A stretch of 19,123 nucleotides of DNA from a virus: UHGV virus genome UHGV-0246749. The stretch is one strand, 5' to 3'. How positions within the stretch are numbered: position 1 is the first letter of the stretch; each line of letters begins with the position of its first letter. Shown here piece by piece: positions 1 through 6,000 of the stretch. The position numbers were made by a program.

Positions 1-3000
1 CTGGATTTTATGAATCAGGAAGTAGTCAAAAACGCTAATATGCATCCATCTGGGGTGGGTGTGGGTAGTGACTTTAATCCTGTGTATTCTGGTGACCCTA
101 ATAAACCGAATATGATTAACGAAGGATGGAGTAGAATTTTTAGTTCAATGGGTGAATTGTTTAACAATGCCACAATGAATATTGCAAGATTCAATCATCC
201 AGAATTAATTACCATGAAACAGGATGCATCATTAACGAGCACTGACATCCAAAATCTAAGAGATGAAATTAGTGCTTTGAGTAAGCGTATTCAGGAGCCA
301 GTGAAAGTTTCACTTGGTGGTGAAGTTGCCATTAAACCAGATGAAACCAGCTTTATGACCTTTAGCAGTAGTATCTACGACAAATATTCAGAAACTATGC
401 TACTAAGTTCATCATTCCCAGAAGATGATTGATTTAACGGTGTTCTACGTGAATAAAGCAAAGTTAATACCCGCACTGAAAAATAGAATTTACGTACAAC
501 ACGCTTAACAGAGAAAATACTTATATATCAAAGGCTTGGTTAAAAATGATTAAAATACACTAAGCCTTTGAAATCAAAGGAGAATTTAATGATTTACACT
601 AATCAGCTTCGTTACACTGGCAAAGATGGCGTTTACTTTCATCTACAAGGCCAGCCAGATAATTTCTTGTCACTATCAGCTACTGAGAACATGGAATTTG
701 ACAGCCCTATGATGGTGACCACTCAAAATATGCAATCAGGGCAGACTGTAACAGATAATGTAATGCGTTCACCAAGAACTATTTCAATTAGTGGTGTGGT
801 TGTGGTTGGTGAATCCGGTAGTACCCTTATCTCACGAGATAATAAGCTGGTGGAGAACTTCATCGACACCCTTGAAACTTGGAGAGACCAGAAACAAATT
901 ATTTCAGTGATTTGTAAAGATGGTATCAAGATTGATGACTCAATTATTACCAACTTTAAAGCCTCTAAAGATGTTACTATCTCTAACGGTCTTAGAATCC
1001 AGCTAACTTTTCAGGAAATTAACTTTAAAGCTATTGTAGGGCAAACTGATATTTCAGCAGCCACTGGCAAAACGGCTACCACAAATGATGGCGGTGCTAC
1101 TTCTAAGAAGAATACTGGCAACACTACGACAAGCTTGGGTAATGGTATGTTGCTGTGTCAGGAGCTATATAATCGCTCTACGAGTGAACTTACTAATGAG
1201 CAACTTCAAGCCCGTATCAATTGTGGTAAAAGTGTCAGAGTTGAGAATGGAAAAAGCACCTTCTCAGATGCCGCTAATGAGCAAGCTTCGAAAGTGCTTA
1301 ATAATGCTGGTGCAGGTAATGTTTTGAAGAGGCTGTCTATTAATCCTAACAAGCGCTACTGACGATAGAAGCTCAACTATATGATAACCTCATCAACATC
1401 TATCAACCCCCTCTCAGTGACTTCAGAAAGCGACTGTATAGCCTCTGTAACGTCCTCTGAGGGGTTTTCTGTTATTGGTAGGTCAATTAACCTACCGTTG
1501 TGAAAAGTCACTTTACAGCGACGTTTAGCAGTATTTAAAACGACCTCTTTAACAGCACTTCTAATAATCAGTTGTGCTTCAATCCTTCCCGCCTTTGTAG
1601 TCAAGTCACAATCAGACAAACAACCAACATCAATAGATTTAAGGCGTTGTGTCTCCTTCTCGATATCCGCATCAACCTGTGATAGCTCACCTTTTAACTG
1701 CTTTAGTTTGATGGTAATAGCTGACAAATCTTCAATTTCAAGTGATAGCTGTACCAGCTTTTCAATATTGCTTGAGATGTGTTCACGGTGTAGCTTCAAT
1801 GTATCAATGACATTCGTCATATCGCTATCAAATCGGTCAAGACGAGATAGCAGGGTAAGTAATGTACCATCGGTTTGCTTACGTGACAGCCCTTTAGCAC
1901 TACAACGGTTTTCATTACGAAGAGGACAACGATAAATCCCGCTTCTTGTATCGCTAAAGCCTGTGATAATCAGAGCATGACCACATTCAGAACAACGGAT
2001 AACACCTTTAAAGAGATTCACACTCAATGGTTTATCTGAAACAGACCTCTTTCCATAACGAGAATGTGATAGTTGTTGAACTTTGTAGAATGTTGTTTCA
2101 TCTATAATTGCAGGATAATAACCAGATATCTCTTCACAGCCTTTCGGGGTAAAGTATCCAATTACAGAGCGATTCTTCAAAAGGTCTTGCACTGAGGTTT
2201 GACCAAACTTACCCGGCTTGTATTGGTTCATCGACCGGTGACCTTCAGCATTAAGAGTTCTGACAATCTCCCAGATAGACTTACCCTCTAACCGTAGCTG
2301 AAAGCACCTCTTCACAGTTTCTACCTTCTCAGGTATTACAGAGAAGCTTTTACGGTCATCATTAAGCTTAAGCCATGCAGGACAACGTTTAGAAACTTTG
2401 ATACCAGCTTTAGCAGCCTCTTTCTTGGCATCCCATGCAGCCTGTATACGCTCAGCCTTACGTAATGATTCCTCATGCGCCCTTTGCATTATCAAAATGC
2501 TTTTAATCAGAGCTAGCGGGTCTTTAAGAGATTCCTTTGTGTAATGTTCACCATCGGACAGGGTGACTACATCTACACCAGCCCTTAAGATACGGCGTAA
2601 TAGCTCAGAAGCAATATCAATATCCTGACGTGACAAACGGTCTAAACTCTCGATTAGTAGCGTATCACCAGCTTTAACAAGACCTTTCTCGATAGCGGTT
2701 AAGAAGTCACCTAAGCCACCTTTCAAGTGCTTACCAGTGAACCCGCTAACGCCTAAATCACGAAAAGATAAATCTTGGTCAAGGTAGTACTCAGGATGAG
2801 CCTTAAGCCAATCTGTAACCATCTTAGATTGTCTGCGTAGTGAGTCGCCTTTGGCTTGTCGCTCAGAACTGAATCTGATGTAGCTGATTACACGTTTCAT
2901 TCTTTACCACCATAAAAACTAATAGCAGTTGGGCTTGTTATGAGGATGCTTCATCCGAATCATCTACCAACCCCTAGATTGTATCGCTTTAGGTGGTGTA

Positions 3001-6000
3001 TTTAAACGTGTCTGATGAAAATCACCCGATTAACGCCGCGCTGATGTAAACCGCGATTAAGCGTTTGTTCCTCTTCCCCTTTGGCGAAAAACTGTGGATG
3101 GCGGACTTCCACACCATAATTAAATTCGCCGGGAAGGGAATCGAGAAAATGCCAAAGCGCAGGCAGATCCCGTGGGCCAAATGTGGCAGGCAGTTGCAGC
3201 CAGTATTGCCCAATGCGCGGCGCTAACGGTGACATGCGGGTCAAAAATTCAGTCACTAAATCATCGCAATGCCGTAATGCTGCCTGATGCGAAATGGTCG
3301 CCGGAAACTTAAAACAGAAGCGAAAATTATCTGTGGTCTGCTCACGCCAGCGCAGGACAACCTCGGATTTCGGCAGGGCGTAAAGCGTGGTGTTGCCCTC
3401 CACACAGTTAACATGACGGGTATTAAGGATTAACTTACTGATTTTAATAAGCCTCTGGTGTCACTTTGGTGACTATGGGGCATCATTGGGACATAATCTG
3501 TCAGCTTCTGATTCAGCATTGCGATCTGTTCTGCATTGCTGTCAGTCATCCATGCTCCGTATACATTGAATACCATCTGGGCACTTGCATGGCCCATCTG
3601 GCTGGCAATGAAGCTTGGGTTTGCTCCGGCAGATAATGACCAGCACGCATAAGTGTGTCGTGACTGGTATGCCTTTCGATGCCTGATCCCTGCACGCTTA
3701 ATGGCTGTTTCCCATGAGTCACCTACAGAATCGACTTTGTAGACAAAACCTACCTGTTCGCTTTTTCTAACCACTTGAGGGTTAAACACGAAAGTACATT
3801 CATGGTTCACTGAACGTCCATATTCACGTAGTTGCACCTTGATGTTGTACTGCTTACCCAGTCTTGTCATTTCAGCCTGATTTTTCAGGACACTGATAGC
3901 GGGCTGGATAAGGTGCACAACCCTGTTTGTGCTTGCTTCAGTTTTCGGTAGAGTGAACTCACCAAGTTTCGTATAATTGCGCCTGATGGTAATTGTTCCT
4001 GCCTTCAGATCGATATCTTCCCAGGCCAGGGAGACCAGTTCACCGTGACGCATTCCTGTGTACACAGCCAATGACCACAGGTTTTTCGTCTGCTGATGTC
4101 GGCAAGCATCTATCAGGCGAATAAATTCGTCACGAGTTAGCGGATCTGGCTCTGCCCTGGCTCTTTTAAGAGGCTTAATTCCCTGGAAGGGATTTGCTTC
4201 TAAGTAACCGTGATCTGCAGCAAACTGAAACATTCCAGCGATTGTCGTCATGTAATAATTTACAGTAACGACGCTCCGTCCTTTTGCTGCTGCTTTGTTT
4301 TTCGTTGAATTCTGATACCCGGTAAGCAAATCTTTCCTGATATACAGCAATTCCTCTTTGGTTACCGATGACACCAGTCTACTGCCTCCAATTTTCGGAA
4401 CCATCGTTCTTGCAACGGATTCATAGCGATTGAATGCATTTGCAGAGATTTCCATTCGTTTCAGATCCAGCCACTTTTCTTCAAGTTCCTTCACCGTAAT
4501 TTCTTTTTTACTTACCCCAAAAGCCTGAAGGTTGGGGGAGTCAGGGAACTGTGCAGCATAATCAAAGCTTCCTGTGCGGATGGCAAAACATACTGATGTC
4601 CGCAGTTCCCCGGCGATCTTCCTGTTCTTGGCAGTGTCAGGGACACCAAGATTTTCCCTGACACGTTTACCTTTAAAATTAAACCAGATGCGTAATGTGC
4701 CGCCGTGGTTTTCGACGCCTGTTGGATATTTGACTTTATCCATCGATACCTCCAGACGCCCAAGAGCGATACGAGCTTACATATTTCATGATATTAAATC
4801 ACCTGGGTTGTTTGTTTTTCATTGAGGCGACCCAGGCATCTATTGCTTTTCTGTTATACATACATTCACTGGAAGGCTTTGGATTACCGTCTGGTGATAC
4901 GTGAATATACTCTCTTCCAACCATCCAGCATTCTTTCCGGGCCCGAAGAATTGTGCCTGGTTTGAGCCCGGTAATTGCGATAAGAACGCTTTCACAAACC
5001 CATTCATTGGGAGCCAGTTGAATCACATTGCCCATGTATTACCTCACACAACACTCAGCCCACGGCAGTGGCAACACACTTCAAACATTCGCTTCACAAC
5101 TTCACGACAGTAGAAGCCGTCAACATCTCGCGTCAGGTCATAGCGATTGCCGTAACGCTGGTGGACCCATCGTTCAAATGCTTTATTCATTCTTTACTTC
5201 CTTTTTATGGCTCGTAATTTTTTCAGGTGCTTTTCCTGCTCAGTGTCCGCGAGAATTTTGCGGTACTCCTGGTGGTCAATATGTTCGAACAGGCAGTTTA
5301 ACTCACCAATGCGTACCCGCCCTGATCGTCCGTCCATCCGTCGAAAGAACACTGAGTGCTCAGTGATGCGAGTAATCACCACGGGGTATCCGGCTCTGTC
5401 CGTGTATATCTGACCGCGTTGAATCAAAGCGAACATGTGGTTATCCCCATCGACAAATCGAGAACACAACAAACGCTGCTGCGAAGACCACCCCCAGAGT
5501 TACGATTGCATCAGGCCAGCTCATTGATTCACCTCCTGCCTGTCGTCCGGCATTCGCTCACTACAGCTTATCCAACCATCCGGAGTTACCGGAGAGCTGG
5601 TTGACGCTTCCGGGATTTTCCGAAAATTATTGGTTGACGAATCTTTATTTTCCCGAAAGTTTCCGGACTGAAGCATGGCTTCGCGGCAATCGTTCCAGCC
5701 TGTAGCGTATGCAGCCGCTTTGCTGCTGCCTTCAACTGGCGCATCCTGCCAATACATTTCTTCCGGCACTATCGGCGCTGGAGGGGCGGCAAATAGATAT
5801 CCGCCAAAGTCAGGAAGCTCTCTAATGGCCTGTACGAATTTTTGTTTGCCTACGTCAACTCCTAATGGGTAATGAGCTATAATCTTTGCCACCGGCTCTG
5901 CTGCCAGTGATGCCAGCGCAATCCGTGCCAGCTCTTCCGCTTCTTCTGCTGGAAGCACAACGTTGCTACCCGGTCCGTATGTTTCGCGCCACTGCTTGAT

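Follow-up and report, generated by a model that had tools for sequence, protein, structure and literature searches.

A fragment of yecE between a lambdoid prophage and a compact element with a large serine recombinase

The sequence of the UHGV virus genome UHGV-0246749 analyzed here (19,123 nucleotides, hereafter the window) raises the question of how an internal piece of the bacterial gene yecE came to lie between the genes of two unrelated integrases, a tyrosine integrase and a large serine recombinase (LSR). Comparison with related genomes suggests, with a probability of roughly 90%, that two unrelated mobile elements integrated independently at their own sites in yecE, stranding nt 97-477 of the gene, and that the LSR element excises as a free circle carrying the predicted attachment site attP. 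The arrangement itself is of modest interest; its main value is a precisely bounded, apparently undescribed LSR element.

The yecE fragment and its neighbors

When the K-12 yecD-yecN region was compared with the whole window by BLASTN, a single match was returned, in which yecE nt 74-479 corresponded to window 3423-3018 on the minus strand (406 nt, 95.8% identity, E = 0). The Pfam domain DUF72 was matched at 7e-31 on an open reading frame (ORF) of 133 aa (3002-3403), which is co-oriented on the minus strand with ORFs of 507 aa (1377-2900) and 437 aa (3430-4743). The first-pass annotation had described a middle fragment of yecE between two unrelated integrases, and the single interior match and the Pfam domains confirmed this description. 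Alignment to K-12 yecE likewise placed the fragment in the gene interior, although the extent first given (~414 nt, 3005-3420) was slightly generous. Host-derived DNA strictly between the crossover cores covers 381 nt, or 394 nt counting both cores.

3020-3400, minus strand: internal yecE piece, nt 97-477, codons 33-159, a non-functional fragment (BLASTN, junction mapping)

Translation of the fragment is without a proper start and terminates 5 codons into the LSR element. Codon I159 (ATT) of yecE was found at 3020-3022, exactly where a switch after the residues NRVI had been reported, and yecE homology stops abruptly at 3018. The GC content is 0.37-0.44 to the left of this junction versus 0.51 in the yecE fragment, and the Resolvase ORF starts 117 nt from the junction, in agreement with an earlier description of low-GC DNA starting with a large serine recombinase. 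At the other end, where the fragment had been said to abut the stop codon of the tyrosine integrase, that codon is separated from the last base of BLAST homology by 6 nt and from the att core by 18 nt. Window 1-3017 is the end of the LSR element, and the DNA from 3430 to 19123 comes from a lambdoid prophage, of which it forms the early region; because the two elements fill the rest of the window, the yecE piece is its sole core-genome DNA, as had been proposed.

Attachment sites of the large serine recombinase

The serine side of the locus comprises the recombinase gene and one recombined attachment site.

1377-2900, minus strand: LSR, 507 aa, intact (Resolvase, Recombinase and Zn_ribbon_recom domains)
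2992-3017: attP-derived half-site (P arm) of the LSR, GGTGGTGTATTTAAAC followed by GTGTCTGATG, conserved beside the crossover in all copies and forming the left half of the joined attP in metagenome contig L013
3018-3019: crossover dinucleotide AA (TT in the yecE sense), yecE nt 478-479, the sole 2-bp register fitting attB and both junctions

The three LSR domains scored 1e-21 (PF00239), 1e-15 (PF07508) and 5e-7 (PF13408), and the N-terminal catalytic motif Y7-x-R9-x-S11...Q15 was present in MKRVISYIRFSSERQ. The protein matched the C-terminal domain structures of A118 integrase (4kis, 6dnw) weakly (E ~5e-4), and its nearest homologue in a phage database of 50,697 records had 35% identity. Like the integrases of A118/LI, Bxb1, phiC31 and TP901-1, it combines a resolvase domain, a recombinase domain, a zinc ribbon and a C-terminal helical region. 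It also shares with large serine integrases a ~50-bp attP with imperfect inverted arms, a non-palindromic central dinucleotide, an attB inside a gene and a duplication of 2 bp only. Unlike the large serine integrases of phages, it is carried on an ~11-kb capsid-less element, and it is very distant from them in sequence.

In the window orientation, attB reads GGCGGCTGTCT-AA-AATCACCC in strain NMBU_W05E18, the window junction reads GTGTCTGATG-AA-AATCACCC, and the distal junction in SCU-387 reads GGCGGCTGTCT-AA-GATTAGCAAGG. Comparison of the three therefore gave one consistent 2-bp register, AA at 3018-3019. The reconstructed 54-bp attP (GGTGGTGTATTTAAAC GTGTCTGATG AA GATTAGCAAG GTCTAAATACACCTCC) has the architecture 16+10+AA+10+16, in which the 16-nt arms are imperfect inverted repeats and AA is exactly central. 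The two sites can be written as GGTGGTGTATTTAAACGTGTCTGATG-AA-AATCATCAAGGTCTAAATACACTATG for attP and …CCGGGCGGCTGTCT-AA-AATCACCCGATTAACG… for the ~50-bp yecE attB. The arm consensus of attP is GGTGGTGTATTTAAAC-N10-AA-N10-GTCTAAATACACYnnn, and a second arm variant, found in JKHS016 and GN02350, keeps the same geometry. Judged from its sequence, this layout is what a serine integrase would be expected to use. A promoter-like -35/-10 pair on the minus strand (3006..2978) overlaps the P arm and was no better than shuffled expectation in the promoter scan. The earlier expectation that this junction would define the att sites of an uncharacterised serine integrase was borne out by the reconstructed pair and by a metagenome contig carrying the predicted attP, described below. 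A fully specified attB/attP pair with its crossover dinucleotide is now available for a divergent LSR and could serve as an orthogonal integration tool in E. coli.

Empty sites and reciprocal junctions

In strains NMBU_W05E18 and U1 the DNA is 100% identical to window 3018-19123. Identity breaks off precisely at 3018, beyond which NMBU_W05E18 continues as uninterrupted yecE 3' DNA, yecN and cmoA. Because empty-site strains run on into normal yecE, the low-GC DNA is an insertion, as first suggested; the references were checked for low-GC DNA as a native flank of an uninterrupted gene, and it was not found there. The opposite state, with the serine insertion only, was observed in PEC1009, GN02350 and L033, in which the element is directly followed by yecE 1-479, yecD and aspS. 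The abrupt change in composition would also be produced by an assembly chimera, or by a truncated yecE paralogue with low-GC DNA as its native flank, and it is the only observation that speaks for either. At least 11 finished genomes and 9 IMG/VR contigs contain the junctions with exactly the same bases. Both explanations were rejected because empty-site alleles and reciprocal junctions exist, and the probability left to them is negligible.

Both insertions were traced in JKHS016. The order there was cmoA, yecN, the yecE 3' piece, a 10,832-bp LSR element, the yecE middle piece, a ~51.65-kb lambdoid prophage, a 105-bp yecE 5' remnant, yecD and aspS, with no rearrangement. In-silico joining of yecE nt 1-96, 97-479 and 480-819 of this strain restored an intact 819-bp ORF of 272 codons, which has 8 mismatches to K-12 and no base gained or lost. 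That two elements had cut yecE into three pieces was thus verified by the other pieces at the far ends of both elements in JKHS016. The attB and attP sites were also reconstructed in relatives; JKHS016 supplies the distal yecE pieces of this kind of locus, not those of the window's own genome.

In NMBU_W05E18 (L009, NZ_CP042878.1 ~2311.8-2313.1 kb), the tail-fibre end of the prophage is followed by potB-potA-pepT in place of yecD, and the same neighbor was found at the tail-fibre end of the yecE prophage in SCU-387 (L005, NZ_CP051688.1 ~2776.1-2776.5 kb). The presence of potB instead of yecD points to a large inversion, produced when two lambdoid prophages on opposite replichores recombined. 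Since the closest relatives share this yecE/potB inversion, the window's own 5' yecE piece probably lies far away, beside a recombinant prophage, whereas its 3' piece is predicted ~11.5 kb to the left.

The lambdoid prophage at yecE

The tyrosine side begins at the att core and extends to the end of the window.

3401-3411: tyrosine att core CACACAGTTAA, yecE nt 96-86 (phiP27 attL/attR annotation; repeated at the far prophage end in JKHS016)
3412-3429: arm contributed by the phage to the tyrosine att site, with the same sequence as the phiP27 left end beyond the core
3430-4743, minus strand: phiP27-type tyrosine integrase, 437 aa, stop codon 3430-3432 (Arm-DNA-bind_2, PF12167; Phage_integrase, PF00589)
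4799-5035, minus strand: excisionase, DUF1233 (Pfam 9.5e-33; excisionase annotation in related genomes)
5036-19123: lambdoid early region with Ea22-like genes, LexA-family repressor, Rha, replication genes, Q antiterminator and the start of a porin gene (100% to NMBU_W05E18 and U1)

The phiP27 record annotates the 11-bp sequence CACGCAGTTAA as attL and attR. The window core differs from it by one base (A for G), a yecE polymorphism that gives the consensus CACRCAGTTAA. The first 12 nt of the phage arm mimic yecE (CATGACGGGTAT vs AGTGGCGGGCAT), and BLAST homology overshoots the core to 3423 because 3412-3423 in the phage arm resembles yecE. In JKHS016 the core forms a direct repeat at both prophage ends, the far-end copy lying at L030 35790 beside yecE nt 1-96 and yecD.

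The window integrase was 96% identical in amino acids to that of phiP27, a phage carrying Stx2e, with which the prophage also shares the excisionase family and the 11-bp core at yecE nt 86-96. The int-xis DNA was 94% identical to phiP27 and 99.4% to PhiR49_2. The likeness to phiP27 is confined to the int-xis module (72% of a 2.6-kb query), and the rest is a different lambdoid genome; annotation of the window revealed no stx genes in its prophage portion. The gene yecE is a documented integration site of lambdoid and Stx phages (PMC3603311, PMC8112680). Its earlier designation as a recognised locus of this kind therefore agrees with the 11-bp att annotation of phiP27 and with PMC8112680, and the tyrosine half of the arrangement is already known.

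Recurrence and independence of the two insertions

A 504-nt query across both junctions was covered in full in 10 complete genomes and to 95% in an eleventh, so that at least 11 of the 5,426 complete genomes carry both insertions. The LSR was also present in nine IMG/VR contigs, every one of them a double, with tyrosine Int alleles 72-100% identical to that of the window. The varied Int alleles indicate that different phage-element pairs arose repeatedly. Among the same 5,426 genomes, the phiP27-type junction was present in 284 and the LSR arms in 240; independence would give 12.6 doubles versus the 11 observed. Neither attraction nor exclusion between the two elements was seen in this approximate comparison. 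The first-pass annotation had spoken of two recombinase classes at two sites about 400 bp apart in one small gene, which agrees with att sites ~380-390 bp apart. Its term "natural tandem-island" holds for two neighboring insertions, but not for a functional tandem, because the frequency of doubles fits chance co-occurrence.

The neighbors could nevertheless be functionally coupled, with the LSR element hitch-hiking on the yecE lambdoid phage as a co-induced or co-packaged tandem island. Int, the yecE piece and the LSR gene are co-oriented, and a sequence scan found no terminator-like site between them; read-through from the phage int/pL region into the LSR gene is possible, and would not by itself cause excision. 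Sister elements lie in or near other lambdoid att genes (wrbA and the ompW region), and the nine doubles in IMG/VR also point in this direction. The IMG/VR bias, however, follows from the content of that database, which is limited to regions called as viral. In the complete genomes the doubles fit the product of frequencies, and most LSR elements occur without a yecE prophage. Packaging of lambda from cos runs away from the int side, which also argues against joint packaging. Moreover, the tail genes of the element resemble those of Felixounavirus myophages, not the lambda-type tail genes of its neighbor. Coupling is therefore regarded as extremely unlikely.

The double occupancy adds another instance to a familiar class of events and is ordinary hotspot biology. 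Several integrated elements accumulate at the yecE, ompW and wrbA hotspots (Nakamura et al. 2021, PMC8112680). At those multi-prophage loci an incoming phage inserts at a duplicate of the tyrosine att sequence already in use, whereas the second element in the window uses another recombinase class and another site ~385 bp away in yecE. One small dispensable gene can thus hold att sites for two recombinase classes that are used independently.

Free circular form and mobility of the LSR element

A search with a degenerate 44-nt attP pattern found the joined attP in one metagenome contig, ERZ1090866 NODE-760 (L013, 11,473 bp). This contig is a circular permutation of the whole element, with its ends joined through the predicted attP and no yecE. 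Its last ~40 nt (11431-11473) hold the Nextera transposase adapter CTGTCTCTTATACACATCTGACGCTGCCGACGA, and the ends abut on the reference once this is trimmed; L013 was not assembled as a circle because the untrimmed adapter broke the assembly. None of the 240 finished E. coli genomes carrying both arms contained the joined attP. In these genomes the att arms were at two separate chromosomal places, annotated "DUF72 | recombinase" in the matches listed, which speaks for site-specific insertion. The attP pattern had no match in IMG/VR, and the element had none among PLSDB plasmids. Contigs of 11-12 kb with the 236-aa protein of the element were considered as further circles and rejected, as they were integrated copies with host flanks.

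In the proposed mechanism, the first element would be a ~50-kb lambdoid prophage whose Int and Xis integrate and excise it at its own 11-bp core. The second would be the ~11-12 kb low-GC element, whose LSR would cut at the central AA/TT of yecE nt 478-479 and join attP to the yecE attB. The LSR, as the enzyme presumed responsible and in the deduced crossover register, would alone catalyse attP x attB integration. Excision would presumably need a directionality factor, possibly helper-encoded as reported for the Vibrio PLE (PMC6002521); profile searches of the element genes against PHROGs, Pfam, NCBIfam and PADLOC recognised no candidate for such a factor. As the att sites do not overlap, either element could enter or leave without affecting the other. 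With ~385 bp between the sites, the sequence does not tell which element came first, and identical strains carrying only the lambdoid prophage fit a later gain of the LSR element as well as its precise loss.

Several points weigh against this reading. The window's genome is absent from the complete-genome collection, and relatives with elements of 87-95% identity supplied the distal junctions. The recombination activity of both enzymes is deduced from sequence. Genome collections are clonally biased, which makes the independence test approximate. The circular form was seen in one metagenome contig of low coverage (6x), and a tandem duplication could in principle also give a joined attP. Finally, the GN02350-type variant, the closest to that of the window, shares AAAATCA between attP and attB, so that the AA register rests on the SCU-387 variant and the dyad symmetry.

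Gene content of the LSR element

The window holds the integrase end of the element, in which two tail genes and an upstream segment were recognised beside the LSR gene.

10-432, plus strand: C-terminal 140 codons of a tape-measure gene that runs off the left window edge (aligned to the tape-measure coding sequences of SCU-387, JKHS016 and GN02350)
568-1362, plus strand: Dit-like baseplate/distal-tail protein (Pfam Dit_like 7e-19; JKHS016 orthologue phrog_3721 1e-119)
2927-2976: upstream of the LSR, a 50-bp segment that is an indel between element variants (missing in SCU-387)

Complete copies measured 12.3 kb in SCU-387, 10.8 kb in JKHS016 and 11.6 kb in GN02350. Their conserved gene order was a small resolvase (some copies), a Dam-like methylase, a replication initiator, several small ORFs, a 236-aa protein, a 67-aa protein, the tape measure, the Dit-like protein and, on the opposite strand, the LSR. 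The replication initiator (Rep) belongs to the PHROG O-like/DnaD-like group, and its ORF holds 4-5 iterons AGTGACAAAATGWCA at 22-23 bp spacing (L008 11993-12083), like the lambda O origin arrangement. Full-length tape-measure homologues match Pfam TMP_3 and phrog_4036. PHROGs and Pfam searches found no capsid, portal, terminase or lysis genes in four variants, and six small ORFs gave nothing usable in PHROGs, Pfam, NCBIfam or PADLOC. The serine element is therefore described as a ~11-kb satellite-like unit, not a prophage. Prophage predictors merge it with the neighboring prophage, which matters for annotation.

The element might instead be the decayed, immobile stump of a once-complete prophage, in which case the junction would be a fossil. 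Consistent with this, the only recognisable virion genes beside the integrase are the tape measure and Dit, and neither a directionality factor nor a packaging gene was recognisable in profile searches. However, one compact gene order and a size of 10.8-12.3 kb are shared by copies 9-14% apart in DNA and by sister elements with other LSRs and sites. Core ORFs were intact and of similar length in 14 of 14 copies, among which amino acid identity was 91-95% for the LSR, 43-99% for the tape measure, 23-92% for the 236-aa protein, 45-97% for the 67-aa protein and 69-90% for Dit. Such diverged yet intact ORFs argue against a decaying remnant, as do the element's own Rep gene with internal iterons and the existence of a free circular copy. 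No larger parent prophage with this LSR was found in the phage database. We consider the stump explanation very unlikely.

A literature search covering few subscription journals and no supplements found no paper linking yecE to a serine recombinase of this kind, none on a satellite of Felix-O1-like phages and none citing these protein accessions. The LSR, its att sites and the element family thus appear to be undescribed; an LSR catalogue reportedly compiled by Durrant et al. in 2022 could still list this enzyme. Among contigs from a collection of one genome per species, the LSR was found only in a 548-bp "Mycobacterium" contig, apart from a 24%-identical Ruminococcus protein, and the element appears confined to Escherichia/Shigella in that collection. 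The 548-bp contig (L014, NZ_LMVQ01000531.1, "Mycobacterium sp. NAZ190054") encodes the first 163 LSR residues at 95% identity and is almost certainly contamination of the Mycobacterium assembly.

The 236-aa protein (L012 12388-13098, homologues P0001-P0120) is called "transposase" by NCBI. It had no match in Pfam, NCBIfam, PHROG or PADLOC and formed 3,082 clusters at 90% identity, almost all from E. coli, Shigella and E. fergusonii. Its AlphaFold2 model (pLDDT 61, pTM 0.41) consisted mostly of long helices and was too poor for a fold search. The transposase label looks unfounded, and the diversity of the protein is striking. The 50-bp segment at 2927-2976 contains short repeats able to form hairpins and recurs, at 100% identity, close to the distal end of the sister element at wrbA; it is possibly a regulatory or accessory-factor site. 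The metagenome contig L013 broke beside the iteron region.

Relation to Felix-O1-like phages and known satellites

The tape measure (28-32% amino acid identity) and Dit (65-79%) were the only element genes with homologues in a complete Felixounavirus genome, in which they are adjacent and in the same order. The window Dit-like gene was 69% identical in amino acids and 80% in nucleotides to that of Felixounavirus TP1, where it likewise follows the tape-measure gene. Dit DNA was 78-84% identical to Felixounavirus in most copies, 93% in SCU-387 and 92% in M19, a spread that implies repeated exchange with phage. Non-coding stretches upstream of the methylase/Rep operon also matched Felixounavirus intergenic regions (58-78 bp, 81-88%, E 1e-11 to 1e-14). 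These were L012 7962-8019 and L008 10498-10555, matching the promoter-type regions 17406-17461 and 69211-69288 of TP1 (KP869100), and expression of the element may be wired to phage regulators. The homologies are suggestive of co-infection and exchange, and are not proof of helper dependence. The LSR belongs to a compact, highly diversified element family with Felix-O1-like tail genes and promoter-like sequences.

These ties raise the possibility, held here tentatively and at somewhat less than even odds, that the element is a satellite or parasite of virulent Felix-O1-like myoviruses, representing a widespread undescribed family and an enterobacterial counterpart of the Vibrio PLE. The yecE-type element is present in about 4-6% of complete E. 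coli genomes, and its exact attR junction is contained in the window. On infection, the LSR would excise the element, its own iteron origin would replicate it, and its tape-measure and Dit tail-tip proteins would redirect or sabotage tail assembly of the helper. PLE is reported to be a small chromosomal island with a large serine recombinase, its own replication initiator and ties to a virulent myovirus (PMC6002521, PMC7145576). The element shares with it integration of a small island by an LSR, a replication initiator of its own, the absence of capsid and terminase genes, and genetic ties to a virulent myovirus. It differs in having no sequence relationship to PLE, in integrating outside any repeat, and in carrying tape-measure and Dit homologues of the presumed helper, which is not known as a feature of PLE. 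PICI, cf-PICI and P4-like satellites (PMC10085698) are reported to be similar in size and host range, chromosomal and dependent on virion functions that they lack, whereas they have tyrosine integrases and capsid-remodelling or capsid-forming genes, terS or primase modules; the element has none of these and carries a tail-tip module in their place. If the satellite proposal is true, E. coli and Felix-O1 phages would be a tractable model for satellite parasitism of lytic phages, with relevance to phage therapy and typing, where Felixounaviruses are used.

Sister elements were observed at other sites. The one at wrbA (L026, E. coli M19 NZ_CP010221.1 2219.1-2230.4 kb) has the same architecture with a 547-aa LSR of 35% identity and is inserted in wrbA codons 6-9 with the shared core GTGCTTT. 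Its end supplies a new ribosome-binding site and start (MSVKARILVLYYS… for MAKVLVLYYS…), so that wrbA stays intact, unlike the disrupted yecE. The third sister (L031, GCA_013350895.1 SNAC01000087.1) carries the 236-aa and 69-aa proteins, tape measure, Dit and a 506-aa LSR, and adjoins yciA-yciB-yciC-ompW, in which ompW is occupied by a tyrosine-integrase prophage. The three sister elements thus lie in or near the classical lambdoid att genes yecE, wrbA and ompW. A 12,681-bp scaffold from human faeces (L035, MT836130.1, "Bacteriophage sp.") has a TMP_3 tape measure, a small resolvase, an AbiJ-like defence gene and a 585-aa LSR (29%), and may be a distant relative of this element type.

Other features of the prophage region

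In lambdoid-only strains, PGAP calls an "intact" 256-aa DUF72 coding sequence with an ATT start 19 nt inside int (window 3403-3448; L007 4605-5375). The phage arm keeps the DUF72 frame open (…TRHVNCVEGNT vs native …ARHFNCVEGNT) and the first ~24 YecE residues are lost; function of this product is doubtful. In the lambdoid early region, Rfam isrK (12279-12355, 61.6 bits) and C4 antisense RNA (12380-12467, 82.4 bits) lie side by side on the plus strand within a second Rha-family gene (12222-13076), and the arrangement resembles the P1/P7-type antirepressor control module. The window ends inside a prophage-borne OmpC-like porin gene (18964-19123, minus strand) downstream of the Q antiterminator, which is named ompC in NMBU_W05E18.

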